This document shows positions 2,101 to 26,621 of a stretch of DNA of 64,000 bases, piece by piece. The first letter of the stretch is position 1. Every line of letters begins with the position of its first letter. Source of the DNA: Escherichia coli (GTDB lineage: Bacteria; Pseudomonadota; Gammaproteobacteria; Enterobacterales; Enterobacteriaceae); assembly GCF_030013595.1 (NCBI RefSeq), contig NZ_CP122768.1. One strand, given 5' to 3'. Below the pieces are notes generated by a model. It was not told the origin of the DNA. It worked only from the letters and a program-made list of their open reading frames with translations, and did not search any database. Made by a program: the position numbers and the translations under genes.

Positions 2101-2514
2101 TTAAATTTTGATTTCGTCAAGCCCGACAATCTTATGAATCGTATTGTCGTAAAGTTTAACGCCCGGTTTACCGTTTTTTAGGGTAACGAAACCGGCGGTG
2201 ATGTTGCCTTCACAACTTTGATTGTTGTTGTATTTGATGGTCTGGGCTTTACCGGTATAGAAATTAATTACGCCGTATAAACCATCCCAGCACGCTGTAC
2301 CCCCCATGGCGTGTACCAGACCGTATTGCATGTCTTTGGATGTGCCCAGGTATTCACAACCTCCGTCGATAGTATCAGTACCCTGACACCAGAATTCTGT
2401 ACCGTCAGTAACGTCAGTCAGGTTGGTCGGTAAAGGAACGGCATTGTTTGCTGATACATTAGCAGTAAAGAAACTGATAACTGCAATCATTAAAATAGTG
2501 ATGATATTTTTCAT
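2101..2514 (-). CDS. Hypothetical secreted Cys-containing protein (signal peptide)
   Basis: 137-aa ORF with hydrophobic N-terminus MKNIITILMIAVISFFTANVSA; six Cys in mature part; lies in visibly AT-rich DNA. Confidence 0.45.
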   Translation of the reverse strand: MKNIITILMIAVISFFTANVSANNAVPLPTNLTDVTDGTEFWCQGTDTIDGGCEYLGTSKDMQYGLVHAMGGTACWDGLYGVINFYTGKAQTIKYNNNQSCEGNITAGFVTLKNGKPGVKLYDNTIHKIVGLDEIKI

Positions 2515-2783
2515 GATAAATACTCCATTGTTTCTGATGTTAAATAAAAGTATAAAAACTGTTTCTGCAATACTTATAATCCACTCGAGAGGTCAGGATT
2601 AACCCCCGACTTGTTTATTAAACACATACCTGAAGATATGACCTTCAACATGGTGATATATTTATACTATGTTTCTGACTGTCTCCTGAATCAAATAAAA
2701 TATATCCGTTCCATGATGAACATCATTTACCTGTTAAGAACACTAATAACCTGATTATTTAGCAAACTCTGCGAGAAAGAATA

Positions 2784-3323
2784 TCAGATCGTAAATAACA
2801 CCAGTATCAGCATAACCAGCCAGACCCAGAAATAAGCAGGTTTTTGCCCGAGGATCTTTGCCCGACGCCACAGATAAACCGGGATCAGCCATGCCAGCCA
2901 GCCAAATGCTGTGGTATCAACACCAGATTTACGGAGTTTTCGTTCATCCAGATATCCCAGAGCAATATTCAGAATCAGAGAGATAAACCAGTACTGGCCT
3001 TCGCTGACTGCATCATAAGCCCGTTCAAATGACATACCGTTCAGCCCGGCAGTCCACATCTCAAGTATGTACCCAATCAAAGGGGCAAATGCCAGCGTCC
3101 AGACAACGTCTCCGGGAATGCGGTGACCCGGAAGGGCCGGAGGAACTTCACTTTGTTTCAGTATTTCCGCCAGTGATGTGGCTGAAACTGGCTGCCATTC
3201 CAGCATGCCCTGTTGCCACACCAGTGTTGATGCATTCAGTTCACCACGCCGGATACGTTCGATAATATCTTCCTCTGTTACGTTATCATAACGTACACCA
3301 TTTTTTTCATAATGCCAGTTCAT
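2784..3323 (-). CDS. Membrane protein with N-terminal DUF4339 (GYF-like) domain
   Basis: 179-aa ORF; N-terminus MNWHYEKNGVRYDNVTEEDIIERIRRGELNASTLVWQQGMLEWQPV fits the W-Y-x-NG...TLVW..GM..W pattern of DUF4339; C-terminal half has hydrophobic helices. Confidence 0.5.
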   Translation of the reverse strand: MNWHYEKNGVRYDNVTEEDIIERIRRGELNASTLVWQQGMLEWQPVSATSLAEILKQSEVPPALPGHRIPGDVVWTLAFAPLIGYILEMWTAGLNGMSFERAYDAVSEGQYWFISLILNIALGYLDERKLRKSGVDTTAFGWLAWLIPVYLWRRAKILGQKPAYFWVWLVMLILVLFTI

Positions 3324-3447
3324 CTGATTCTCCTGTTAATCATTCAGTTAATAAAACATGTGACATCCAAAACAAAAATATTTTTATGATATTCATTTTC
3401 ACTCACTGTATTAAATTAAACTGAGGTGTTTTACACCACGTTATCAA

Positions 3448-3905
3448 TTATTCCTGGAACCAGGTGTTCCAGCAGCTACCGTAGAATTTGTTACCCAAAG
3501 TCTTTTTCTCATTTTTGATATTTGCGGTATAGCTGTCGACTTTCTTACCGTTTACTAAAACGTCGAGCTTCGTGGCTTCACCGATAGCATCGATAAAGTA
3601 TACCCACGCATTCTTATTCATTCGTGTTCCGTCGACAGGTGGGGCCGAATACTTTTTACCGTTGATGATAAAAATAATATCAGAATCGTACTGATTTAGC
3701 GGGGTGGGGGTATGACCGTAAATCCACTCATATGTGGTAGCAAATTGTTGTCTTCTGGATTAATCGTGCAGTTAATAGAAACACTACCGACACTGAACAT
3801 ATCGGTGCCAGCAACACTGTTACGCTTCTACAATGCCGATTCTGCTTGTGCTACGGTTGTACTTACAGTTAAAACAACAGCTAAAAGAATGTTTAACAGT
3901 TTCAT
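3448..3905 (-). pseudogene. Disrupted gene for a small secreted protein (signal peptide followed by in-frame stop, remainder in another frame)
   Basis: Minus-strand ATG at 3905 gives MKLLNILLAVVLTVSTTVAQAESAL then TAG; a ~100-codon open stretch in a different frame ends ...GSCWNTWFQE at 3448. Confidence 0.3.
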
Positions 3906-4036
3906 GAGATTTCTCCCCAAAATTAAATAAATTAATCTTAACCATCATCCGGGTAATATATATCTGAAAATATTTTCAATAACACCAGATAAGAAAAACA
4001 CCACCACAGTGGCGGTGGCGTTTCTCCGGTGTGTCT

Positions 4037-5107
4037 TTATTTAATCCGGGCCATCGCGTTTCTCAGTGCCGAATCTGCACCTTCAGTTATCTCCTGGCTT
4101 TTCTGTAATACCGCCTCTGACCGGGTCAGTGCCTGACGCGCCGCCAGTGGTTTCCGGATATGCTCCATCGTCAGCATCGTGTCCTCGTAGCCCTGCTGAC
4201 GCCAGGCGTCGATATGTGCCGACGTGAAACTGAGCAGACCGCCACTGTTGCCACCATCACCTGCATGTTTCAGCCTTTTCCGGGGACGGATTTCAAGGAT
4301 TGTGGTGTCCGGAAAAGCCCGACGATCCCATAAAGAACCGTCACTCAGATGCGTCACAATCACCATATTGCATCCGGCATCCACCAGTGGCGTCACGGGA
4401 GTATTCCCCTGCCTGTTTCGCCATCCGCCCATCCCACCATCACCGTACATTGTTCCCTGAACCTCGCGGGGACGGAACAGCAGAGGCAGCGCGGCTGACG
4501 CCAGTAAAGCTTCTTTCTGCTGCCCGCGGGGCAGACTCTGGATATGCTGAAAAACGGCGTTTTTCGTGGTTCCGGCACCCAGTTCAGCACGAATGCAGTC
4601 AATAATATCCTGCATGCCTCCTTCTGTGGGGTACAGCGACACGTACAGCGGTAGCCCGTCAGCCAGAGCATCTGTATCAAGATAATGATCCATCAGCGCT
4701 GTCAGGGGCTCATCTGACAACAGCGGCTGAATCATCGGATTGTCGAACCCGTTGATTGTCGATATATGGCGAAAAAGCGTCGTAAGCAGTGCGCCCGCAC
4801 GTCCGGGGATCTGGCAGAGGTTCATGGCCTGAACCAGTTTTTTCAGCAATGAAAAGTAAACCGATCTGTTTACCGACAGAACCTGATTATTCCCCAGATG
4901 ATCCCAGAGCGCCTCCAGGCGTAAGGTGGCTTCTGACAGATCGGGAGAGGCCGCGATAATGGCACCATTGAGAGCCCCGATACTGGCTCCTGAGACCATA
5001 CTGATCTGTGCGCCGCACTCTGCCAGTGCCTTAACCACCCCCGCCTGATAAGCGCCCACCGCTCCGCCGCCGGACAGCACCAGCCCCGTTTGCATTTCTG
5101 TACTCAT
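4037..5107 (-). CDS. Patatin-like phospholipase
   Basis: 356-aa ORF; Gly-rich oxyanion motif LSGGGAVGAYQAG, lipase serine motif GASIG (GxSxG), and a DGG aspartate motif (YGDGGMGG) near the C-terminus; ATG at 5107 overlaps stop of upstream gene (ATGA). Confidence 0.8.
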   Translation of the reverse strand: MSTEMQTGLVLSGGGAVGAYQAGVVKALAECGAQISMVSGASIGALNGAIIAASPDLSEATLRLEALWDHLGNNQVLSVNRSVYFSLLKKLVQAMNLCQIPGRAGALLTTLFRHISTINGFDNPMIQPLLSDEPLTALMDHYLDTDALADGLPLYVSLYPTEGGMQDIIDCIRAELGAGTTKNAVFQHIQSLPRGQQKEALLASAALPLLFRPREVQGTMYGDGGMGGWRNRQGNTPVTPLVDAGCNMVIVTHLSDGSLWDRRAFPDTTILEIRPRKRLKHAGDGGNSGGLLSFTSAHIDAWRQQGYEDTMLTMEHIRKPLAARQALTRSEAVLQKSQEITEGADSALRNAMARIK

Positions 5108-6009
5108 GCCTCTCCCTTCTGAAATATTTCATCAACCATACTTTCAGAGAGGCGTTCTGCAGAGCAGAGACGGGGCATACGAACCGGTAAGTGTTCTGCA
5201 GCCTGCGTGGTTGACCAGATCACAGGATGCCGCTCTTCACTGCACCAGTCCCCCAGCCAGTTAACCGCTTCATGCCATTCGTTATCAGCCTGTTCCCGGC
5301 GCTGACCACCAAGCCAGTCCAGTGTGTTCAGACGTACTGTTGCGCTACCGCCACTCTCCCGTGCCATCTGCGTTAATGCTTTATATCTGAGAATATCCAG
5401 TAACTGATTAACCTGGCCTGTTTCACCCTGACGAATCACATCACCAAACGCGCCCCAGCGAAGCTCTTCAAGCGCCACATAACAACGTCCGGCAGGGGAA
5501 AATGACGCGTATCGCCCGGCGCTCCACCACGAGAATATCTGCTCAAGATGTAACTGTGCCCGCTGAACCTGGTCAACACGGTGGAGTTTTTCCTCAAGAT
5601 GATTCAGTTTCTGATGAACCTGTTCTGCCAGAGTGAGTAACTGCTCCCGCGTGTCAGCCGAATAATGCGCCAGCCTGGCAGTATCACTGACCAGTGAACT
5701 GACCCTGTCGTTTACCCGGGTAATCGCGTAGTTTGTGGTGGCAAGTGACGTTGTCAGCTCCGTCAGCCAGCGCAGGGACGCCTCAACGCCCTGTGCAAGC
5801 GACGCATTGATGGCATTCTGCCGTGCAGCGCCTTCGCCGGTCAGCCCCTCTTTTAAACGCCGGAAGAACGTGCGCTCTCCGGCCGTGCGGATATGCTCCT
5901 GTGCAACATCGATTCCGTTTGCGAAATCAACCACAAATTTTTCAGGAAGACAGGTGAGTACCTGACATACCCGGTTATCAGCAATTTGTTGAATAAATGG
6001 TGAAGTCAC
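5104..6009 (-). CDS. Coiled-coil hypothetical protein (YjcZ-like partner of dynamin-like GTPase)
   Basis: 301-aa ORF with GTG start overlapping the dynamin stop (GTGA) and its own stop overlapping the patatin start; no catalytic motif recognised; YjcZ comparison is by size and position only. Confidence 0.55.
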   Translation of the reverse strand: MTSPFIQQIADNRVCQVLTCLPEKFVVDFANGIDVAQEHIRTAGERTFFRRLKEGLTGEGAARQNAINASLAQGVEASLRWLTELTTSLATTNYAITRVNDRVSSLVSDTARLAHYSADTREQLLTLAEQVHQKLNHLEEKLHRVDQVQRAQLHLEQIFSWWSAGRYASFSPAGRCYVALEELRWGAFGDVIRQGETGQVNQLLDILRYKALTQMARESGGSATVRLNTLDWLGGQRREQADNEWHEAVNWLGDWCSEERHPVIWSTTQAAEHLPVRMPRLCSAERLSESMVDEIFQKGEA

Positions 6010-8393
6010 AGCATTGTCTCCAGCTCTTCCCTCAGCGCCTTACTGTCAGTAATGAGCTCAGGAACCCTTTCATTTAATGCCTGAAGTCGCCCGGTAAGCC
6101 GTTCCTGCGCCTGCTGATCGCGTTTATGATCTTCAGAGCTCTGAATCAGCGTGTTACGCAGTTGTTCAACTTTCTCCCTGAATGCGCAGAAAAAGGCATC
6201 GATTTCCTGGCGGACGGGCTGGTTAATATCCTGCTCAATGGATGCCTGCAGCTCCCCGAAATATGCCCGGGTCAGTGACATAACTTCCTCTCTGGCCTTG
6301 TTGATATTGATCACGCTGCGACTCACATCCTCGTCATAGTTTTCCCAGCCCAGGTCACTGGTGCCAAACCATCGACAAACGGTTCCCCATACGCCACTCT
6401 GCCGACGGCGACGGGTGACGGTCTCCGTTCTTTCCTCCATAAGCGCACTCAGATTTATTTTTACCGCGAGCCGGGTCTGTAACTGGCTGACTGCCGGAAA
6501 ACTGATTTTTACGGTAAAGCCCTCATCCTCCAGGCGGGCATTGATGCGACCGGCAATGTTTTCTGTGGCGTACAGGGCCGTGCCACGAAAACCTGTTTCA
6601 ATCCCGCTGACGATTTTCTCCAGCTCAGGCCGGAACTGTGCTTCAGCCTCACGGTGCAGGCTGGTCACGGTCGATTCGATTTGCGTCATCAGTTCAAGGG
6701 CTGCCCTGCGATCACTGAATTTTATTTCGGGGCTGTCCGGATCAAAGTCCCGCATCCTGTCATGCTGATTTCCGGTTCCGAAAATATCGTGAAAGAAAGC
6801 GAATGCGTTTCTCTCCCGGGGCTGCGCTGAATTTTCTTCCTCCAGCATTTGCTGTTCTTTGCGTTTACCGCTTCTGAAATAGTCGTTCAGCTCCTCCTCC
6901 AGTGAGGCACAGACCTTCGTCAGTAATTCCCCGGTTTTGGTATTGATGTCCTCCATGGCCATTCTGACATCACCGGTCACCTGATTCTGACATTCCTCAA
7001 TCTCCTGGATATCCGCCAGCAGGCTGGTAATATGCGCCTGTAGTGACTGAATGCTTTGCTGCAGCCCCTGATGACGTAATGACAGATATTCGCTGACATT
7101 TTCTGCATTCTGCATCAGTTTTGCGGCGGCAGAGTCAACCGCCAGTGCCGCCGCTCTGGAATGGGAGCTCTGTATGACTTCCGTTATCAGTTGATCGATC
7201 AGAGATATATTCCAGAGTTTTTCTGCCTTTTTATTTACCTTAGTGCTGTCTTTCCAGTCGTCCTCTTCCACCATAGGTCCGAAAGCTTCCCTGATAAAAT
7301 CATCGACCCAGGCTTCATCAACCGGAAGCGCACCGTTTTTTCGTAACTCATGAAGCGCACGGTTAGCCAGGTACGCCTGACGTGATGAGCCGGGATAAAC
7401 GCGGGAGGCGGGCAGCACATCGCTGTTCAGCATTGCTGGCACCTTCTGGCGTACGGCATCCGCACCATCACCATTGCGATCTTTTTCATCGAATTTATTG
7501 ACCAGCACAAACAGACGACCGGCTGAGACGTCAGCAATGGCATTAAGCTCTTTACGAACCTCCTCATCGGCTTTCGAGTTCATCTGGGTGTAATCCATCA
7601 CCGCCAGCACCGCAGAGGCTTTCTGTAGTTGATCCCGCATCATCATTTCCATCTGTGGTTGTCCGGCTTCATTAGGGCCGGGGGTATCCAGCAGTGTGAG
7701 TGTTCCCTGACATGCATCCATTCCCACCAGGTGGCTGAACGCCACGTCGATCACCGGTAGTTTCTGCACTTCTGCGTATTCGTCAAAAGGAAATTCAGTC
7801 CCCATTGCCGCAGCAAGACGAACCAGGTCATTTAACGATGCCAGTCCGGTAAAGATTTCGTCTTCCCCGTGGTATTCATTTTTAAGCCAGACATCATCCG
7901 CCAGAATATCCAGTAGTTCGCGGGTATCCCCGGTTTGCTGCAGGGACTGTGCGACTTGCTGCCCTGCCGGGGTGGCGAGTTTTTCCTGCAGTGTGATTAA
8001 TAAATTGCGGACGGGCTGAATATGTTCCAGATGGAGGACCGGTTCCGTTTTTCCGGGAACGTGGCGGATCAATGTCGGTACCGAGGTCATGGGGCGGTTA
8101 CGGTTGGGCAGAATTTCCTGCCCCACAATGGCGTTGATGGTGGTTGATTTGCCCGCCTTCATCGTGCCGACCACAGCCAGCACCATCTCCCTGCGGGCGG
8201 TTTTGATTTGTTCGCCCTCCAGCTCCTCAATTCTTTTCAGCGCTTTCCGTTTATCAAAAAGCAGCCCGTTTTCGTTCTTACTGTCAGATAACACATCCGG
8301 CTCATCAACCATTTGCCGGAGCAGATTGATATTCAGTTGCAAAAGCCGGTCGGCTTCATCACAAAGCAGGGCGATGTTCTTTTCGTGCATCAT
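6006..8393 (-). CDS. Dynamin-like GTPase (CrfC/YjdA-like bacterial dynamin)
   Basis: 795-aa ORF; G1 P-loop VVGTMKAGKSTTINAIVG, G3 LLDTPGPNE, G4 VNKFD; long helical C-terminal region; N-terminal block closely resembles my recollection of E. coli YjdA. Confidence 0.75.
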   Translation of the reverse strand: MMHEKNIALLCDEADRLLQLNINLLRQMVDEPDVLSDSKNENGLLFDKRKALKRIEELEGEQIKTARREMVLAVVGTMKAGKSTTINAIVGQEILPNRNRPMTSVPTLIRHVPGKTEPVLHLEHIQPVRNLLITLQEKLATPAGQQVAQSLQQTGDTRELLDILADDVWLKNEYHGEDEIFTGLASLNDLVRLAAAMGTEFPFDEYAEVQKLPVIDVAFSHLVGMDACQGTLTLLDTPGPNEAGQPQMEMMMRDQLQKASAVLAVMDYTQMNSKADEEVRKELNAIADVSAGRLFVLVNKFDEKDRNGDGADAVRQKVPAMLNSDVLPASRVYPGSSRQAYLANRALHELRKNGALPVDEAWVDDFIREAFGPMVEEDDWKDSTKVNKKAEKLWNISLIDQLITEVIQSSHSRAAALAVDSAAAKLMQNAENVSEYLSLRHQGLQQSIQSLQAHITSLLADIQEIEECQNQVTGDVRMAMEDINTKTGELLTKVCASLEEELNDYFRSGKRKEQQMLEEENSAQPRERNAFAFFHDIFGTGNQHDRMRDFDPDSPEIKFSDRRAALELMTQIESTVTSLHREAEAQFRPELEKIVSGIETGFRGTALYATENIAGRINARLEDEGFTVKISFPAVSQLQTRLAVKINLSALMEERTETVTRRRRQSGVWGTVCRWFGTSDLGWENYDEDVSRSVININKAREEVMSLTRAYFGELQASIEQDINQPVRQEIDAFFCAFREKVEQLRNTLIQSSEDHKRDQQAQERLTGRLQALNERVPELITDSKALREELETML

Positions 8394-18389: not shown

Positions 18390-19028
18390 TCAGCGAACCG
18401 TCCATGCCGGGCTGAAATCCTCTTCCTGAAACAGCTCCGTCAGCCCGCTAATCTGTTTCAATCTGAGAACTTCATCCTGGTCCATACCCAGCTCCGTACC
18501 AATGCGTTCATTCGTCCAGCCCAGGCGCGACAGGTCCCTGACAATATCAGACATTGAGGTTATCTGATGTTTGCCCCTGGCCCGGTTATGTCGGATGGTC
18601 GCAGCAATACGTGAGGCCTGTCCCTTTCTCTCCGGATTAATACAGACCACCGGCAGCCAGCCCTTCAGACGTTTTCCCGTACCTGCTTCCCTGCCCAGCA
18701 CCTGGCGATGAAAACCATCCACCACCAGGTAATGGTTCTTTTCCTCAGACACCACCACCGGTTGTGTGAAACCATCTTTCTCCAGTGACTGCTTCAGCAG
18801 TTTCTTCTCACCCGGCGCCATGACATTAGGATTGTAATCATTGGCCACCACCTCATCTGCTTTTACCCACAGCACACAGTCCACTGGCTCATGTGCAAAA
18901 GGACTGACTTCATGAAGCACTCTGCGCAGGTGATTAAGGGCCTGTATGGTCTCTTCTTCTGGTCGTTCCTGGCTGAAGTACTGACGAATCATGTTGCCAA
19001 TTATCTCCGGTGTCACAGAATCCCCCAT
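18390..19028 (-). CDS. ParB-like nuclease-domain protein with DGQHR-type motif (IbrB/DndB-like)
   Basis: 212 aa; YLVVDGFHRQVLGRE (DG-F/Q-HR motif); start overlaps stop region of upstream PAPS-reductase-like gene by 16 nt. Confidence 0.65.
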   Translation of the reverse strand: MGDSVTPEIIGNMIRQYFSQERPEEETIQALNHLRRVLHEVSPFAHEPVDCVLWVKADEVVANDYNPNVMAPGEKKLLKQSLEKDGFTQPVVVSEEKNHYLVVDGFHRQVLGREAGTGKRLKGWLPVVCINPERKGQASRIAATIRHNRARGKHQITSMSDIVRDLSRLGWTNERIGTELGMDQDEVLRLKQISGLTELFQEEDFSPAWTVR

Positions 19029-20290
19029 TCCTTCCTCCTTTCTTTCATACGCTGCAGATAACGTTCATAGTGCCGGGGTTTGTTCGGACTGAAGGAGAGG
19101 GTCCGGTACCAGAAATCATTCTTTATAAGTGTCTTACAGATACGCCGCCAGGACGGAATATCCCGGCTCCCCAGGTCATTCTCCTGTTCATCCGGGATGT
19201 CATCCGGGAAGCCCCGCGTCTGATACCAGCGCAGGTAGACAGCAATTTTATTACGGTAATGTTCTGCCGTTCTTTCCGGCATCACATCCAGCAGGAACAT
19301 CGCATAGCTGCGCCAGGTATGATGGGCTGGTTTTGATATACGTTTACGCAGGGCAAAATAGGCACCGCTTTCATTGGCATAAAGCGCCCCGCTGGCAGCG
19401 CCTGACACCCGCTCACACATCCTGGCCCAGGTTTCCGGCTCCAGAACATGGTAAAGCCACAGCCCCTTACGTTGTTCAGGACCAAAAGGTTCACAGACAC
19501 GCATGTTGCGTAACGGCACGTCGGCACGGTACATCAGGTCATACAGAGGATTGTAAATGGCACAAGCTCTGGCGTTATATATCCAGATATCGCGGGCTTT
19601 CCAGTCATACAACGGATACATGGTGTAATAAAACCCTTCAGGCGATGCCGTGGTCCAGGGCTTATCATCGGCATATCTCAGTTTGCGCTGAGACACCAGC
19701 CCCATAAAGCGATTGAGGGATTCATCCGCACGAACACCGGTCAGCACTGCCACTCCACACCGGTTACCGGCAAACCAGGAAGAAAATGCCGGAACAAATT
19801 CTTCAAACGTCATGGCATACCGGAAAAAGGGAAAATATGTCATATCCGTAATGGCCTCTTCCGGTGGCTGGCGAACCCAGGTCACTCCTGGCTCCCAGCA
19901 TATCCACTCCGGCTGAAACTGCGAGACGCCGTTTACCGTGGTCAGGGGAAGTGCCACCCAGTAAAAGGTTTCCGTCACATCATGGTACATTTCCCGCATC
20001 TTCTGAATATGTTCAATGGTGCACCGATACTGGGCCTCCCAGTCAATGAACAGAACAGAGAAATGACGTTTTCTCCTGCGGGCCACCTCTGCCACAAGAT
20101 GGAAAAGCACGGTGGAATCCTTTCCACCTGAAAAAGACAGACATACCGACGGAAATGTTTCAAAAATCCACTCAATGCGGGCGATTGCAGCACGCAAAAC
20201 ATTTTCTCCGGTAAGGATTTTTTCGGTTAAAAGCGTATCACTCATTTTCCTGGCTTTATGTCGAATAATTCTGTTTATACATTCAGGCAA
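19013..20290 (-). CDS. PAPS reductase / PP-loop ATP-pyrophosphatase family protein (IbrA/DndC-like)
   Basis: 425 aa; PP-loop SFSGGKDST near N-terminus; long C-terminal extension; translationally coupled to ParB-like gene. Confidence 0.7.
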   Translation of the reverse strand: MPECINRIIRHKARKMSDTLLTEKILTGENVLRAAIARIEWIFETFPSVCLSFSGGKDSTVLFHLVAEVARRRKRHFSVLFIDWEAQYRCTIEHIQKMREMYHDVTETFYWVALPLTTVNGVSQFQPEWICWEPGVTWVRQPPEEAITDMTYFPFFRYAMTFEEFVPAFSSWFAGNRCGVAVLTGVRADESLNRFMGLVSQRKLRYADDKPWTTASPEGFYYTMYPLYDWKARDIWIYNARACAIYNPLYDLMYRADVPLRNMRVCEPFGPEQRKGLWLYHVLEPETWARMCERVSGAASGALYANESGAYFALRKRISKPAHHTWRSYAMFLLDVMPERTAEHYRNKIAVYLRWYQTRGFPDDIPDEQENDLGSRDIPSWRRICKTLIKNDFWYRTLSFSPNKPRHYERYLQRMKERRKEWGIL

Positions 20291-20745
20291 ACTTCATTAA
20301 TAACTCACCGCTTTGGGGATAAATAATAACAACAAAAATCTTCAGATATTAACCTGGTTGTTGGATTTGTTATCACATCCTTTATCCACCTGCTTCTTAC
20401 TGGTAACACACCTGGAAAATCCATGCATTTTCAACATATACTATCCTTTCAACTTGTAAATAAGAAAATATGATGCAGATGGTGAACAATTCAAATATCA
20501 TTTTGCAGGAAGTATTCACTGTAATAGAATTACCCCCTGATAAAGTTTATTCACTAAGGAATTATTCAACAGAAACATTCCCTGTTAGCTTTGAGCAATA
20601 GCACTTATTTTTATATGTATCAGGAATACGTACGTTGATGTAACCAAAACAAAGAAGCCTGTGTCCATGGGGTTCGTACAATTGTGTGTGGCACATGACC
20701 AAATCAGGTTTGAGACCTCCCGCTGCAATATTTTTTATTCAGATT

Positions 20746-23427
20746 TTAGCCTGTCAGGCCTGACAGAAACGCTCCCAACTTCCCTTCTATATCACTGTCT
20801 ATAGTACGTAATCTTAGCAATGGCAGGCCGCATTTCTTCAGTATACTGTTTTTAAGTTCATCACGTTCAGCCTGAACACTGGTCAGATGATAACCTCCAT
20901 CCACTTCAATAACCCCTAATGGAGTCTTCCCGACCTTATAGTAAACAACAAAGTCACAACTGGCCCGGTTACGCATGAATAACTGTTCACGGTGTGTAAA
21001 ATCCCCCCGCTCCAGCGACACCAACTGATTCAGCGCTATTTGTGAATGAAACATCATACTCCGATAACTATCCTGCGACAGGATATCCCGCAACAGGCAG
21101 GCCACAATCTGTTCTGACTTAAAGTGTGAATCATTTGAATTCAATCTACTATTCAGTCGTTCCAGTGATTTGTCATACTCACTGTACAGCAAATCAAATG
21201 CTGATATGACCGGGCTCTCGAAAATCTCTCCGTCATCAGCGTAGTATTTGATGTAACGAATCAGCGCCGCAATATGTCCAGCGTGGCGTTCAAATACATC
21301 ATTACCAGTCACCAGCGTAAATTTATTTCGGGCCCTTGAAACAGCGACATTCACCAGTTCAGGATTATCAACAAACGCGATGTTCCGACTGTGCTGGCTG
21401 CTGCGCTTCTTATCCAGCACAGTGGAAAACACAATTTCATCGCACTCCCGTCCCTGAAATTTATGCACCGTCGATTTCACAAAATCAGCAGGCAGCACTT
21501 TTTCAGCCAGATTAACCTGTGCATTATATGGGGCAATGTATCCCCTGCTACTTTCTTCATCCCAGTAATGACCTTCCAGAGATTCAAGCTCCCTGAGATT
21601 TGAAAAATTACGGGTATGGTTTCCTTTTGCCGTGATGACCAGAGATAATGAGGCTTCACCGGAATCAACCGTTAACGGTATCAGAGCATTATCATAAAAC
21701 TGCTTATTACAAAATTGAATGATTTTAGGATGACAACGATAATGCTCTTTAAGAAGGGTTACTGGCACCATGTTCCTGAACAACATACAAACCGAATCAA
21801 GTAGACTATATTTCTCACAATTATAGTATTCTGCCGGTGGAGATGGGCTGTTCGGGAGTAATACAGGAACATGTGGAAGTTGCTTACGATCCCCTACAAC
21901 GATTACATTACGGGCACATCCCAGTCCCAGAATGCCCGGAACAATATCCTGCTGCGAGGCTTCATCAATAATAACATAATCAAGAAGGGCCCCCTTGCCG
22001 ATAGAGTTAATAATCGAATGCGTACTGCTACCAATAATCGGAAAACGCTTTATAAAACGGTCAAATTCATCCCTGTATGTCTCTGCCGAGAATGAACTTC
22101 TTGTTGAAACATTTCTTCGCAGATGTTGCTTTAAATAAAGCATAGACCATGATGTCAGGCGCCCCAGTAAAATTTTAAAATCAGATTTTTTAAATACTTC
22201 CTCATATTCATTCAGAGAAATTTGTTTTTCCCGGATATTTTTTTCATAATAAGAAAGCTGAAGAGAAGTAAATAGCGCCAGCCTTCTCTCCGGAATCATC
22301 AATGGTTTGACTTTCAGTATCATGAAGTTTAACAACAAATCAATTCTGTTTCTGAATCCAATCCGCCTGTCAGAAAGGTAATGAATATAAGCCATCAGGT
22401 CGGTTGTTTTTTGTGAGGAAAATCGGTATTTGTGAGAAAAAAGCTCCTCCGGTCGAAGATTCTGACTCTGCCATTGCTGCAGGTATTTATACTCAATATT
22501 CAGCTCATTAATTTCTGCTTTTAACGAAGCGACCTGGTTAATGGCATTCAGGTGTTTTTTCACTTGTTGAAGTACATCATCAATCGCATTTGCAGACGGT
22601 GAGTCAGGTAAGACTTCCTCAGAACGCGAAATCGACGTTGAAAAAAACTGTTGCCTGTTCCCCGTACTCCCCAGTCGTGCCATCACATATCCCAGTTGCT
22701 GTTTGTCCATCTTTTCATAAACATTACTGACAGCTGAGTTATTATTGGACAAAATTGCCACTGTTTTATTCTGAATTAATATATTAGCAACAATATTGAG
22801 TATAGTCTGTGTTTTACCTGTTCCAGGTGGTCCTTCAATAACTGAAATCTGTGAGGAAAATGCCCGTTCGACAGCCAGCAACTGACTTTCATTAAGACCA
22901 AACGGAAAAATCAAACCCCATGGCGAATCACGTTTTTTACTCTGTCCTGAACAGTATGCATGCAAGGCGGTATCCGGATGAGGAACTATTTTCTTTATCT
23001 GCCTAAGGATATTCTCATCGATATTTCTGTTATTACCACGGGCATAAAAAATACGTTCATTAGCCACCCTACACAAGTAATTAAACACGGCATGCTCTGT
23101 AAATGCTGAACACTGTTGAAAGTCAAGGCCGGTCGTTTTCATGATGTAGGGTCGTTCACCCTCGCGGTAATAAACAGCAGCATATTTATCACCATATATA
23201 ATAACCAGTTCAGCCCGGGATGTTACAGCGTTCCCTTTCCTTTCGAGGAAAACATTTCGCAAATTTACAGTTGGCGTTATCTGACATACAGAAAGCGGAC
23301 GAGTATATTTTCTCCCGCTGCGAAAATGACAGGTCAGCATAACCTCTCTGTCGTCATTTCCAGCCCACAGCGTCCAGTCGGTAATTTTATGAGTCTTATT
23401 TTCACCGTCAACACAAATCGTGACCAT
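20746..23427 (-). CDS. Superfamily-1 (Upf1/DNA2-like) helicase with N-terminal unknown domain and C-terminal Vsr/DUF559-like endonuclease domain
   Basis: 893 aa; Walker A GPPGTGKT, Walker B IIDEASQ, motif III VVGDRKQLP, YRCHPKIIQFCNKQFY, motif V VHKFQGRECDEIVFS, motif VI VAVSRARNKF; C-terminus CDFVVYY...VIEVDGGYH...AERDELKNSILKKCGLPLLRL resembles the DUF559/Vsr-type PD-(D/E)xK fold. Confidence 0.75.
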   Translation of the reverse strand: MVTICVDGENKTHKITDWTLWAGNDDREVMLTCHFRSGRKYTRPLSVCQITPTVNLRNVFLERKGNAVTSRAELVIIYGDKYAAVYYREGERPYIMKTTGLDFQQCSAFTEHAVFNYLCRVANERIFYARGNNRNIDENILRQIKKIVPHPDTALHAYCSGQSKKRDSPWGLIFPFGLNESQLLAVERAFSSQISVIEGPPGTGKTQTILNIVANILIQNKTVAILSNNNSAVSNVYEKMDKQQLGYVMARLGSTGNRQQFFSTSISRSEEVLPDSPSANAIDDVLQQVKKHLNAINQVASLKAEINELNIEYKYLQQWQSQNLRPEELFSHKYRFSSQKTTDLMAYIHYLSDRRIGFRNRIDLLLNFMILKVKPLMIPERRLALFTSLQLSYYEKNIREKQISLNEYEEVFKKSDFKILLGRLTSWSMLYLKQHLRRNVSTRSSFSAETYRDEFDRFIKRFPIIGSSTHSIINSIGKGALLDYVIIDEASQQDIVPGILGLGCARNVIVVGDRKQLPHVPVLLPNSPSPPAEYYNCEKYSLLDSVCMLFRNMVPVTLLKEHYRCHPKIIQFCNKQFYDNALIPLTVDSGEASLSLVITAKGNHTRNFSNLRELESLEGHYWDEESSRGYIAPYNAQVNLAEKVLPADFVKSTVHKFQGRECDEIVFSTVLDKKRSSQHSRNIAFVDNPELVNVAVSRARNKFTLVTGNDVFERHAGHIAALIRYIKYYADDGEIFESPVISAFDLLYSEYDKSLERLNSRLNSNDSHFKSEQIVACLLRDILSQDSYRSMMFHSQIALNQLVSLERGDFTHREQLFMRNRASCDFVVYYKVGKTPLGVIEVDGGYHLTSVQAERDELKNSILKKCGLPLLRLRTIDSDIEGKLGAFLSGLTG

Positions 23428-23667
23428 ATTCTTACTCAGAAATTATCATTTAACTTACGGAAAATTGTTAAGGCACTCCCGATATTAGCTCCGGAGGATT
23501 TTCCACAACTCCGGGACTGTTAACATATTTCTGCCTGCCATATATACATTGAATTTAGTCATAACAGTCAATACCAGAATTACAGGAATGCGATGCCGAT
23601 ACGCTGGTTATTGAATACTGGTAGCCCCTGAGCACTAATTCATCACGATACTCTGTATTTACTGTTT

Positions 23668-24801
23668 TCACTGCTTTTTACAACCATTCCCCCAGGTAAA
23701 ATGCTGCTCCTCCGGTGATGGCTGTGTCAGAAACTGCCATCCCGGAATAGCCACGCTGACCGCCAGCAATGCCGCACAGACACCAGCCACAAACGGTTTC
23801 AGAAACGTGGGCGGGGATTTCTGAAGGGAGGGTGACTGCTCCGCCTGCACTTTCCCCTTGCGATTATCAAGGCTCAGTGCATCCAGACGCACCGCGCCAT
23901 TTGCCGCAAGCAGCCCTTCCCGGTTATCCACGCTTCCCGGCAGACTCAGCGAAAAATCCCCTGTTCCCGTCTGAATCAGACTGCCTTTACGATTTGACAG
24001 GCTTTGTGCCGATATCTGCAGTGTGTCGGCATTTATCGTACCGCCATTACTGCTGAACTGCCCGGCAGTCCGGGCGGAAAGCGTATCGGCACTCAGTTGC
24101 GCATTCTGTGTAGACAGATTTCCACTGGTTGCATTCAGCTCAGTATGTTGTCCCTGTATCCGGCTGTTACCTAAATCCAGCCCCTGCTCAATGTCCCGTA
24201 AATCCAGCAGAGAACCTTCGTGTGCCGGGAATGAGGAATACAACTGAATATAGTCATCACTGTCCGGTGTCAGACGCACATGTCGCACAACACCGGGAAT
24301 AATAACCAGCCGGAGGATACCGCTTTTTAAATCCTGCGAAGGTGCCAGAACACGGGTGGTGACATAACCATGATCGACCAGACGGTTCTGCAATGTACTC
24401 ATCAGCAGATTAATTCCTTTCGCCCCCAGGCAATGCCCGACCGCCCCGTTGGCGATTTTTTGTAAAGGCAGCCAGTGTGGTAACGCATCAGCCCCCTTCA
24501 GTTCCGTCTGTTTAATCTGAAAACAGGGCGTTTCAACAGGAAAATTAATCTTATGGGCAAAAGAGCCAGGTGCAGAAAGGCGAACATCAGGGGCTGAAGG
24601 CGTCAGTTGTTGCTCAAGGGCTTCCTGACGCTGCTGCTGAATGATAAATGCTTCATCTCCGCTACGCCGGACATCCGCTGCCTGAAGAGATAAAGGCGAT
24701 AATAAAGCAGACATCAGTGTCAGTGACAGCAAGGACGGACAGCGCCGGAATAAGCTTTGTTCCTCAGTCCTCTCGTTCCTGCAACATAATTTTCCAGTCA
24801 A
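23668..24801 (-). pseudogene. Two-partner-secretion remnant: TpsB/CdiB-like POTRA N-terminus fused to TpsA/CdiA-like repeat fragment
   Basis: Signal peptide [17 protein letters not shown]-like block ([10 protein letters not shown]...[17 protein letters not shown]), then low-complexity hemagglutinin-type repeats; no beta-barrel region, so likely an internal-deletion product. Confidence 0.4.
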
Positions 24802-25388
24802 ACGAAAAACCTTTTATTCATGTCATACCAACAATCACCAGCCTCCTGACGATACCTCCCACCATGTTTTGCGATGGCACGCTACCGCCCTTCCGGTATT
24901 TACCCGCATCAACCGGTACCAGAATGCTGAGTAACAAACCAGCTAGAATTGACTTAATTTTGATCATTATAGAATAATGATCTGAACTACAGCAACATGA
25001 CAGATTTATCGATCGATATAACACAAATGAACAGTTCTTTATTCTGACAAATATCGCAAAAACAGCACATTACAAAATTTATAACCATAATTACTGGAAA
25101 AGTGCAGAAAATTATTCCACTGAATGCTTTTAATACAGTTGGTTAGCTTAAAAAATAGCAATTTTTGATTTCAGTCATTGAAAGTTGCAATGTTTGACGA
25201 TTCAACAGCATTTAAGTGAGTTTCAGGATATGGGAAGGACATGAAAGGAGGAGCGCAATAAAATACACAGGAAGAAGGGGAAAATGTTTCGTAAAAACAG
25301 AAAATTAACAGCGCACATCAGGAAACGCAGTCTCCTGATTCAGTGCTACCACATGAAAATTTAGTTAACTGTTACCGTACTAAAATTT

Positions 25389-25580
25389 ATGTCAGAAGAT
25401 GTTCCATTACCGAAAGTCAATCAGCGATACAAAGACGATCATGGTGCGCTTGTCACCCTGACCAGTGTTGAGGAAACCCGGGTGGTGTTTATGCAGGACG
25501 GCTATCCGCATCCCTGCATGCGACCGATGTACAACTTTCTGGGAAAATTCAAACCCGAACCCCGGGAAGAAACAGAATAA
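25389..25580 (+). CDS. DUF4222-like small prophage protein
   Basis: 63 aa; pattern RYKDDHGALVTLTSVEETRVVFMQDGYPHPCMRPMYNF fits the recalled DUF4222 consensus. Confidence 0.45.
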   Translation: MSEDVPLPKVNQRYKDDHGALVTLTSVEETRVVFMQDGYPHPCMRPMYNFLGKFKPEPREETE

Positions 25581-25632
25581 AACGAAATCCCTGCCGGCAA
25601 TCACACTACCTGATAGCAGCATAATCCACTTA

Positions 25633-25941
25633 TTAATTCTCATCCCCGGAGACAAGCCCAGAAAACCACTCCGGGTGTTCACTGTATGCCGTGTTCAGCG
25701 CATCCCTGGAAACGTTTATATAAAAGCTGTCCTGCAATTTGCGGGTAACAACTTCTGCCAGGCGATTCCGGTTATCCACCAGTCCGGCATAACCTCTCTC
25801 TGCCAGCCACTCATTCAGTTCATGTTCCAGAGACAGATTGATAATATCATAATCGGACCTTGCCATTCCCGTTTCCTTAGCACATGTTTTCAGGCACGGG
25901 GATAAAGTATAAAGAATGTCATACTGCTGCTGCCAGAGCAA
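25633..25941 (-). CDS. Hypothetical small protein (true start may be the internal Met giving ~77 aa)
   Basis: ORF on same strand as the two downstream hypothetical genes; no motif recognised. Confidence 0.3.
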   Translation of the reverse strand: MLWQQQYDILYTLSPCLKTCAKETGMARSDYDIINLSLEHELNEWLAERGYAGLVDNRNRLAEVVTRKLQDSFYINVSRDALNTAYSEHPEWFSGLVSGDEN

Positions 25942-25961
25942 TATTCCCCCTGATGGTTGTA

Positions 25962-26621
25962 TCAGAGATGGTATGCCGGTACTTTGCGGGTTGTTCCCGT
26001 CAGGTTATCGTGCACCTCCACGGTCGTGGTCACCACCGGCATTCCGGCCTTTCTCAGCCTCAGAACATCAGCCGCAATACGCTGACTGCCAAACCAGAAC
26101 AGGCCGTCCAGTGCAGTCACCAGTAAACCCGCCTCCAGTGCATACTTCAGCCGTTCACGGGGCGCTTTCACTTCCCGGGCAACCTGCTGATATGGCAATG
26201 ATGTGTTTTCATTCCCAACCACGCGACGAATACGGTGAGACAGATGATACCGGTATGTATCCGGCACACCAGAAAGGCTGGCCTTCAGGCTGTACACGCA
26301 GCCAAACCGTTTATCGTTAAACACCTCATTTTTCTGGCTGATGCCCCATTCTTCACGCAGCGCGGCAATCAATTGCGGTGTACGGGTAAGCAGCAAGCGA
26401 AAAGGCAGTTCAAAACTGGTGACGTAATCCACATTCAGCAGTGCAATACGCAACCGTTCTTCTGGCCCGGCCTCTGTCTGCCGGCACTCCTCCAGAACAT
26501 CCTGCCACTGCCGGCGAAGACGGGGGGATTCGTTCCGTTCTGTAAAACAGTATTTATCCGCCAGATAGTCAATTCGTGTACGCATACTGAAAGGAATTCC
26601 GTATAAAGATTCAGCAGACAA
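25962..26621 (-). CDS. Hypothetical prophage-type protein (possibly YagK/YfjJ 'inovirus Gp2' family)
   Basis: 219-aa ORF; family suggestion rests on size and island context only. Confidence 0.35.
   Translation of the reverse strand: MSAESLYGIPFSMRTRIDYLADKYCFTERNESPRLRRQWQDVLEECRQTEAGPEERLRIALLNVDYVTSFELPFRLLLTRTPQLIAALREEWGISQKNEVFNDKRFGCVYSLKASLSGVPDTYRYHLSHRIRRVVGNENTSLPYQQVAREVKAPRERLKYALEAGLLVTALDGLFWFGSQRIAADVLRLRKAGMPVVTTTVEVHDNLTGTTRKVPAYHL

Follow-up and report, generated by a model that had tools for sequence, protein, structure and literature searches.

In a 64,000-nucleotide stretch of Escherichia coli DNA (contig NZ_CP122768.1 of RefSeq assembly GCF_030013595.1, hereafter the window), the minus-strand gene at positions 20746..23427 encodes a protein of 893 amino acids (aa) that joins a family-specific N-terminal domain to a superfamily 1 (SF1) helicase of the Upf1/DNA2-like class and a C-terminal DUF2726 (Vsr-type) nuclease. 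We found that this gene is a solitary, horizontally moving one-gene cassette without a conserved partner, and we favour, as reasonably probable, the reading that its product is a stand-alone, single-protein defence against phages or other invading DNA. The evidence for this reading is circumstantial and comprises the solitary mobile cassette, the patchy distribution of the gene, its low GC content relative to the flanking DNA, the defence genes found beside it in other genomes and a frameshift in the sampled O157:H7 strains. A stand-alone defence protein was one of the possibilities raised in the original prediction, which was made from the sequence of the window; cassette behaviour, defence neighbours, patchy distribution and intact catalytic residues all speak for it, although none of the named defence families accepts the protein.

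Three-part architecture of the protein

The open reading frame (ORF) is intact and uninterrupted over its 893 codons, beginning with ATG, and RefSeq names its product merely 'AAA domain-containing protein' (WP_179840170 / WP_000256231). Pfam matches to AAA_11 (aa 178-518, E 5e-20) and AAA_12 (aa 549-583 and 625-707, E 8e-14) cover the helicase, and in an alignment of 21 homologs with 56-83% identity the helicase and nuclease motifs are invariant or nearly so. Walker A (GPPGTGKT, aa 199-206, at 22810..22833 on the minus strand) is invariant in all 21 homologs. It is followed by Walker B or motif II (IDEASQ, aa 487-492, with DEAS at aa 488-491; 21952..21969, minus strand), by GDRKQLP (aa 512-518) and, in RecA domain 2 (21328..21471, minus strand), by motif V (TVHKFQGRECD, aa 653-663, with FQGRECD at aa 657-663) and motif VI (NVAVSRAR, aa 693-700, with VAVSRAR at aa 694-700). 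Walker A, Walker B and motifs III, V and VI are therefore all present alongside the AAA_11 and AAA_12 matches, and the complete Upf1/DNA2-like motif set that had been read from the translation could be located in full. The nearest structures by sequence in the Protein Data Bank (PDB) are those of IGHMBP2 (E 1.7e-14), Upf1, Dna2 and Sen1, while the closest NCBIfam model, TIGR00376 for the IGHMBP2 family, gives 142 bits against a cut-off of 349. Judged by this motif set and these structure matches, the protein is therefore a Upf1/DNA2-like SF1 helicase. It shares all helicase motifs with the Upf1/DNA2/IGHMBP2 family but, unlike its members, has no CH, R3H or Dna2 nuclease domain, carries DUF2726 at its C-terminus instead, and scores below the family cut-off.

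The C-terminal nuclease domain, of the PD-(D/E)xK fold by Pfam and conserved residues, occupies aa 790-880 (20788..21060, minus strand). DUF2726 matches aa 794-879 with an E-value of 2.4e-12 in the full protein and 7e-14 when the domain is scanned by itself; weaker matches to the same domain were obtained for DUF559 (1e-3) and REase_MTES_1575 (2e-3). Among 41 homologs from four phyla, DUF2726 was found in every one (41/41), MTES_1575 in 22/41 and DUF559 in 3/41 (21/41 at E<=0.1). Vsr, DUF559 and DUF2726 form a single group in a survey of the PD-(D/E)xK superfamily (PMC3424549), so that the earlier label 'Vsr/DUF559-like' is a fair one, with DUF2726 the best-fitting family. The pattern VIEVDGGYH...ERD...LLRL on which that label had been based was recovered, with motifs at CDF (D825), IEVDGGYH (aa 840-847), ERD (aa 854-856) and LLRL (aa 870-873), and the putative catalytic residues are kept throughout the 41-sequence alignment. 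Residues D825, E841, D843, G844, H847, Q852, R855, D856, K859 and R872 are invariant in these 41 sequences, which are 31-69% identical, and the conserved pattern D...E-x-D-G...H...R-D...K is the one that the DUF2726/Vsr-DUF559 group requires. From this family pattern, the active site would be expected to comprise D825, E841, D843, H847, R855, D856 and K859, and the nuclease is very probably active because these putative catalytic residues remain invariant in homologs with as little as 31-33% identity to the query. A PDB sequence search with a profile of the C-terminal domain gave chance matches at best, and hhalign of the C-terminal alignment against one Vsr sequence, a single-sequence template of low power, gave no match; it is therefore Pfam and the published classification that connect the domain with Vsr. 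DUF2726 nucleases have also been described in fusion with AbiJ N-terminal domains in predicted abortive-infection proteins (PMC3710099).

The least familiar part of the protein is the N-terminal domain (aa 1-178; 22894..23427, minus strand). It is predicted with a confidence (pLDDT) of 88 to form ten beta-strands in a small-barrel-like arrangement, followed by three helices, and is specific to this family. The original prediction had set aside about 190 N-terminal residues as unrecognisable, and this holds for the 178 residues defined here: Pfam gave no match to the region in any of 35 homologs and nothing within aa 1-177 of the query, and we found neither a viral counterpart nor a PDB match for the domain. 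Its fold faintly resembles Sm-, Hfq- and Tudor-like small barrels at scores below significance (Z <=4.7). When the domain was compared with AFDB50 by Foldseek, proteins of the same family were retrieved exclusively, including distant proteins of about 900 aa from Firmicutes, Bacteroidota and Actinobacteria, named 'DNA helicase' or 'DUF2726', in which the sequence similarity of the N-terminal region is past detection. With the domain as query, HMMER was run exhaustively over 1.84 billion representative proteins and produced 64 matches, of which all the significant ones lie at or near the N-terminus of proteins of about 900 aa or of short fragments. By these sequence and fold comparisons, the combination of the three parts is of old origin and has stayed fixed, with the N-terminal domain confined to this one architecture.

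RecA domain 1 also contains, after Walker A, a long insertion of helical, coiled-coil-like character (aa 279-445; 22093..22593, minus strand), with long helices at aa 279-323 and 379-439 in the AlphaFold2 (AF2) model. The insertion and the N-terminal domain both evolve fast, with mean pairwise identities of 51-52% among proteobacterial homologs as compared to 70-74% for the RecA cores and 68% for the nuclease. Such rates are as expected of a recognition module, and we infer that the N-terminal domain is a sensor or regulator.

Distribution, mobility and genomic neighbourhood

Homologs number roughly 4000, and those of full length are 53-82% identical to the query in Proteobacteria and 33-49% identical in Firmicutes, Bacteroidota and Actinobacteria. 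To describe their surroundings we used 79 loci of other species from a genome collection, with 10 kb on each side of the gene, together with seven loci that were looked up individually. Clustering of all ORFs in the 79 loci, in which a conserved operon partner was sought, revealed none: no neighbour family occurs in more than nine loci, and those that recur comprise LysR regulators, ABC ATPases, guaA/guaB, pheST and recombinases. Within 120 bp of the gene lie 27 neighbours on the same strand; these are mutually unrelated, and the 17 of them that were scanned against NCBIfam or PADLOC comprise three defence genes, each of a different system, several ordinary cellular genes and a majority that matched nothing.

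The boundaries of the conserved DNA coincide closely with those of the gene. The E. coli gene and its Salmonella and Serratia copies share 80% DNA similarity, and the homology stops 33-37 bp before the ATG and 2-13 bp past the stop codon. In 29 of 67 loci the GC content of the gene is more than 3 points below that of its flanks, as compared to 5 loci in which it is above, and in the window itself the gene has 41.9% GC versus 48.9% for the whole stretch. A phage collection yielded five weak, partial matches, a near absence from phages, and the plasmids with a full-length match are, with few exceptions, large replicons of 0.26-2 Mb. Carriage by phages or plasmids is therefore not typical of the gene. 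Several copies lie directly downstream of guaA, and the 3' end of that gene is suggested as a recurrent insertion hotspot for the cassette.

Individual loci add some detail on where copies of the gene are found. In six unrelated Proteobacteria (loci L005, L011, L016, L019, L034 and L089) the gene directly adjoins guaA or a guaA fragment, at a distance of a few hundred bases, and in Paraburkholderia (L088) its distance from guaA is 9.5 kb and it occupies the end of a small islet with a resolvase, an IS21 element and hipBA. The copy in Salmonella (L081, with the neighbouring genes at 2144-3970 and 8654-9922) is preceded at 79 bp by the end of a gene for a 422-aa LAGLIDADG_3-domain protein; a NERD-UvrD helicase is encoded 6 kb upstream and a fragment of IS66 TnpB lies downstream.

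Defence genes are frequent among the neighbours. In two Alkalimonas species (L003/L004, 12795-16619), a full-length homolog of PD-Lambda-4_A (1274 aa, E=0) is encoded on the same strand 110 bp downstream, and no other validated defence gene that we saw is so tightly associated. In Oscillibacter (L059) a type III restriction endonuclease is encoded 66 bp upstream, and in Bacteroides (L073) the adjacent gene encodes a DrmD-like protein. When 30 ORFs of at least 300 aa were drawn at random from within 5 kb of the gene, six (6/30) had strong matches to defence proteins, namely Hachiman HamB, Menshen NsnB, AbiLi, a type IV restriction enzyme, a type I methyltransferase and a SNF2 helicase of the DpdE/ZorD type, and two more had weak ones. 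Six in 30 is far more than would be expected of random bacterial genes by a general background estimate, rather than by a matched control.

Within E. coli, we identified the gene in 647 of 5426 complete genomes (~12%). The region is 100% identical to chromosomes of ETEC1746 and of O145:H28 strains such as RM12581, and the gene sits amid fragments of insertion sequences (IS) in the tellurite-resistance/iha island. It is intact in O145, O111 and enterotoxigenic E. coli (ETEC) strains. In O157:H7, by comparison with the window, one A is lost from a run of six (A6 run, codons 163-165; 22933..22938, minus strand), and this 1-bp deletion (locus L086) leaves two ORFs, one of 171 aa for the N-terminal part and one of 722 aa for the helicase-nuclease. 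All O157:H7 genomes of a spread sample carry the deletion and RefSeq annotates two separate proteins in them; a split annotation was seen in about a quarter of the evenly spaced E. coli entries listed. Judging by the O157:H7 frameshift, strains can evidently do without the gene, in line with an accessory character.

The island around the gene contains several other features. A complete IS66 element (tnpA, tnpB and tnpC) lies at 12821-15409 on the plus strand; the otherwise identical O145:H28 island (L001, 7021-16299) has the aerobactin operon iucABCD-iutA and a major facilitator superfamily (MFS) transporter in its place, which makes the left part of the island a mosaic that varies from strain to strain. 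On the other side of the helicase-nuclease gene, a 377-aa ORF at 23668-24801 (minus strand), annotated 'POTRA domain-containing protein', also matches TIGR01731, the 20-aa repeat of filamentous haemagglutinin (E 6e-11), and seems to be, rather than an intact gene, what is left of a two-partner secretion locus, a chimera of a TpsB N-terminus and TpsA repeats. Three overlapping genes at 4037-8393 (minus strand) encode a patatin-like phospholipase, an RdcB-family protein and a 795-aa dynamin-family protein, and a separate GTPase gene is found at 11722-12633. Genes of this dynamin/GTPase region match the LeoBC/LeoA (Eleos) defence models weakly (E 9e-6 and 3e-8), and those at 4037-8393 could be a distinct dynamin-based module. 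A PADLOC scan of the other island genes in the window gave weak matches only.

Comparison with known systems and possible roles

The protein was compared with the defence models of PADLOC (2023) and NCBIfam (2026). PADLOC matches are confined to the helicase core, the best being MkoA (2.7e-43, aa 178-729) and MkoC (2e-40), followed by PDC-S37 and Hhe. None of the NCBIfam models reaches its cut-off: in addition to IGHMBP2, Hhe gives 76 bits against 2000 and ProA 110 against 1500. Hhe (Gao et al. 2020) resembles the protein in combining, in one polypeptide, an AAA_11/AAA_12-type SF1 helicase with a PD-(D/E)xK nuclease of the Vsr group, and its defence is abolished by the nuclease mutation E1731A (bioRxiv 10.1101/2022.06.16.496414). 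However, Hhe proteins are about 1800-1900 aa long with a DUF4011 domain, whereas the 893-aa protein has no DUF4011, an unrelated N-terminal domain and a DUF2726 nuclease; its score with NF042953 is 75.8 bits (cut-off 2000), and the match to the Hhe model covers roughly 75-115 residues around Walker A (PADLOC Hhe E 2e-16, partial profile). Mokosh provides the best defence-database matches to the helicase core, in MkoA and MkoC. Its type II form is reportedly a single protein that joins a helicase to a phospholipase D (PLD) nuclease. In contrast to the PLD-type nuclease of Mokosh, the protein here has no PLD domain by Pfam, matches the Mokosh profiles in its helicase half alone and has no conserved neighbour in the 79 loci. 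In PADLOC, 21 families match with E<=0.01, and Nhi is not one of them.

In layout the protein resembles CnuH, which belongs to the type III-B CoCoNuT systems (Bell et al., eLife 2024, PMC11090510) and is likewise a Upf1-like SF1 helicase with a large coiled-coil insertion after Walker A and a directly fused Vsr-type nuclease. Unlike the gene studied here, which has no conserved partner in the 79 loci and encodes a different N-terminal domain, CnuH has an N-terminal winged helix-turn-helix (wHTH) domain and is encoded with a McrB-like GTPase, a McrC-like protein and a coiled-coil protein. In the window, the places that genes for these McrB-like (CnuB), McrC-like (CnuC) and coiled-coil (CnuA) proteins might occupy are taken by ibrA and the POTRA-domain ORF, and no neighbour cluster of any kind proved to be conserved in the 79 loci, although a profile search for McrB/McrC was not made in every locus. 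The nuclease-dependent defence of Hhe, type II Mokosh and the layout of CnuH provide a precedent for helicase-nuclease logic, and we regard the protein as a candidate that may work like the known single-protein helicase-nuclease defences while being a member of none of Hhe, Mokosh, Nhi or CoCoNuT.

As a stand-alone defence, the protein might act as follows. The N-terminal domain, perhaps together with the coiled-coil insertion, would keep the enzyme inactive or recognise an infection cue, for which a foreign replication intermediate, single-stranded nucleic acid or a phage protein are candidates. ATP-driven translocation in the 5'-to-3' direction, the usual polarity of Upf1/DNA2-like SF1 helicases, would then carry the tethered nuclease along foreign DNA (less likely RNA) and cutting by the nuclease would either destroy the invader directly or abort the infection. 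We give about an even chance to the more specific proposal that the family is an unnamed, multi-phylum, single-protein immune system whose N-terminal beta-barrel is a new infection sensor, licensing a Upf1-like translocase to deliver a Vsr-type nuclease.

Several points weigh against a defence role. The polarity of the helicase, its substrate (DNA or RNA) and its trigger are all inferred, and RecA domain 2 (aa 559-759) is poorly predicted in the full-length AF2 model (pLDDT <50), so that we draw no conclusion on domain packing. No curated or candidate defence model in PADLOC 2023 or NCBIfam 2026 spans the whole protein, and a literature search found no study or defence phenotype of this helicase-nuclease family. 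The immediate neighbours in E. coli include no known defence genes by a PADLOC scan, the copies in Serratia, Pseudomonas agarici and Photobacterium have housekeeping neighbours with an IS element or none, and the 6/30 count of defence genes is compared with a general background estimate rather than with a matched control.

The first alternative is that the protein is a cellular or element-maintenance helicase-nuclease with no immune role, one that takes part in DNA repair, recombination or replication as Dna2 or RecD do, or that helps a mobile element to replicate or transfer. The likeness of the helicase core to Dna2, IGHMBP2, Upf1 and RecD-type enzymes is what such a role would predict, and it would agree with the ordinary chromosomal contexts of the Serratia, Pseudomonas agarici and Photobacterium loci and with the high conservation of the protein across Proteobacteria (53-82% identity). 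Such a role fits poorly, however, with presence in just 12% of E. coli genomes, pseudogenisation in the whole O157:H7 lineage sampled, low GC relative to the flanks and cassette-like boundaries, and with the lack of consistent linkage to conjugation, replication or integrase modules, the near absence from phages and the restriction of nearly all full-length plasmid matches to replicons of 0.26-2 Mb. Defence genes are also more frequent nearby than a general background estimate would suggest, and we consider this alternative unlikely.

More doubtful still is an RNA-directed surveillance role, in which, as predicted for CnuH of type III-B CoCoNuT, the Upf1-like helicase would move along RNA and the Vsr-type domain would be an RNase; defence would then come from RNA cleavage and growth arrest. 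The Upf1-like clade includes many RNA helicases, the protein shares with CnuH the coiled-coil insertion after Walker A, seen here in the AF2 model, and the fused Vsr-type nuclease (PMC11090510), and the faint likeness of the N-terminal domain to Sm-, Hfq- and Tudor-like barrels (Z <=4.7, not significant) would also be in keeping with an RNA substrate. On the other hand, the Vsr, DUF559 and DUF2726 nucleases of known function act on DNA (PMC3424549), we found no McrB/McrC partner genes and no HEPN, cold-shock or YTH domain, and the N-terminal fold matches are below significance.

The IbrA/IbrB neighbours and significance of the family

The genes that follow downstream on the same strand are those for an IbrA-like PAPS-reductase protein, an IbrB-like ParB protein, a PerC-family regulator and a hypothetical protein (17413-20290, minus strand, adjoining the helicase gene). 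The original prediction had described the first two as a ParB/PAPS-reductase pair, which is correct, and had raised the possibility that the helicase-nuclease is the restriction arm of this 'DndBC-like' pair. IbrA carries PAPS_reduct and DUF3440 domains and matches BrxP and DndC weakly and partially (PADLOC), and we found no other Dnd or Ssp component (DndA/D/E, Ssp). Transcriptomics has shown ibrB, perC and the adjacent hypothetical gene to be induced on adherence to epithelial cells (PMC7649339).

The gap between the helicase gene and ibrA, previously given as 456 bp, is 455 bp when ibrA is taken as the longest ORF with a TTG start, or 500 bp with the RefSeq start. A separate transcript for the helicase gene, which had been suggested from this gap, is plausible: a sigma-70-like promoter match (TTAACA, an 18-nt spacer and GATAAT; 10/12 consensus positions, consensus match alone) lies at 23442..23471 on the minus strand, 15-44 bp 5' of the helicase-nuclease ATG, and its -10 hexamer falls within the upstream flank shared with the Salmonella and Serratia copies (homology to 23460/23464). 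A scan for terminators gave a signal no better than shuffled sequence, and an Rfam scan of 16000-26000 gave no match.

The whole block of helicase gene, ibrA, ibrB, perC and hypothetical gene is also kept in a second island context, in E. coli STEC005, where it is flanked by type VI secretion remnants on one side and, on the other, by a Dcm methyltransferase gene and fragments of a phosphorothioate-dependent restriction enzyme. Across the 5426 complete E. coli genomes, however, ibrAB occurs in 2159 as compared to 647 with the helicase, and the sole class of ibrAB that matches the helicase in number is that of alleles with at least 95% identity, which points to inheritance of one shared island lineage. 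The pair is also found without the helicase, for example at locus L084, and about 1500 further E. coli genomes have ibrAB without perC or helicase. In tblastn searches of the 79 loci of other species, no homolog of IbrA, IbrB or PerC was detected within 10 kb, and among the seven loci looked up individually, ibrA (61%) and ibrB (49%) occur near the helicase in one species of Edwardsiella only. There (L090/L091, 1-1388 versus 10001-12676) they lie 8.6-10 kb upstream of the helicase in a different order, with LysR, MFS, AP-endonuclease and GntR genes in between, and the ibrB copy is apparently degraded, being broken into small ORFs. This co-location could be due to chance in a variable region or could be the remnant of a shared island.

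We conclude that the adjacency of the helicase gene to ibrAB reflects the shared island history of one E. coli lineage rather than a functional unit, because of the genome counts (2159 versus 647), the helicase-free L084 locus, the loci without IbrAB, the weak IbrA matches and the missing Dnd/Ssp genes. A modification-dependent system of the Dnd/Ssp kind, with the helicase-nuclease as its restriction arm, is therefore very improbable: same-strand adjacency in the window, the block in STEC005, the Edwardsiella pair and the BrxP/DndC similarity of IbrA speak for it, but among the loci covered linkage within 10 kb is seen in E. coli and Edwardsiella alone (with ibrB apparently degraded in the latter), the conserved cassette ends at the boundaries of the helicase gene itself and a gap of 455-500 bp separates it from ibrA. 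The resemblance to Dnd/Ssp is thus limited to a ParB-like and PAPS-reductase-like pair adjoining a nuclease-helicase gene, without conserved co-occurrence. A further, less likely possibility is that in some Enterobacterales (E. coli and Edwardsiella) the helicase-nuclease has been co-opted to act together with IbrAB. In the literature IbrAB are regarded as regulators associated with virulence, and the analysis removes a tempting but unsupported connection of the helicase-nuclease with them.

If the helicase-nuclease is protective, it would be a compact (~900 aa) and widespread one-gene defence system, present in about 12% of complete E. coli genomes, with carriers that include O145 and O111 Shiga-toxin strains, ETEC and many Proteobacteria, Firmicutes, Bacteroidota and Actinobacteria. 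Because many such one-gene defence candidates exist, specialists may find this useful but unsurprising; the new part is the N-terminal domain, which would offer a new sensor-like domain to study. A protective role would also explain a natural on/off difference between lineages of Shiga toxin-producing E. coli (STEC), with the gene intact in O145 and frameshifted in O157:H7, and this difference would bear on the phage susceptibility of STEC and on their phage-based control.

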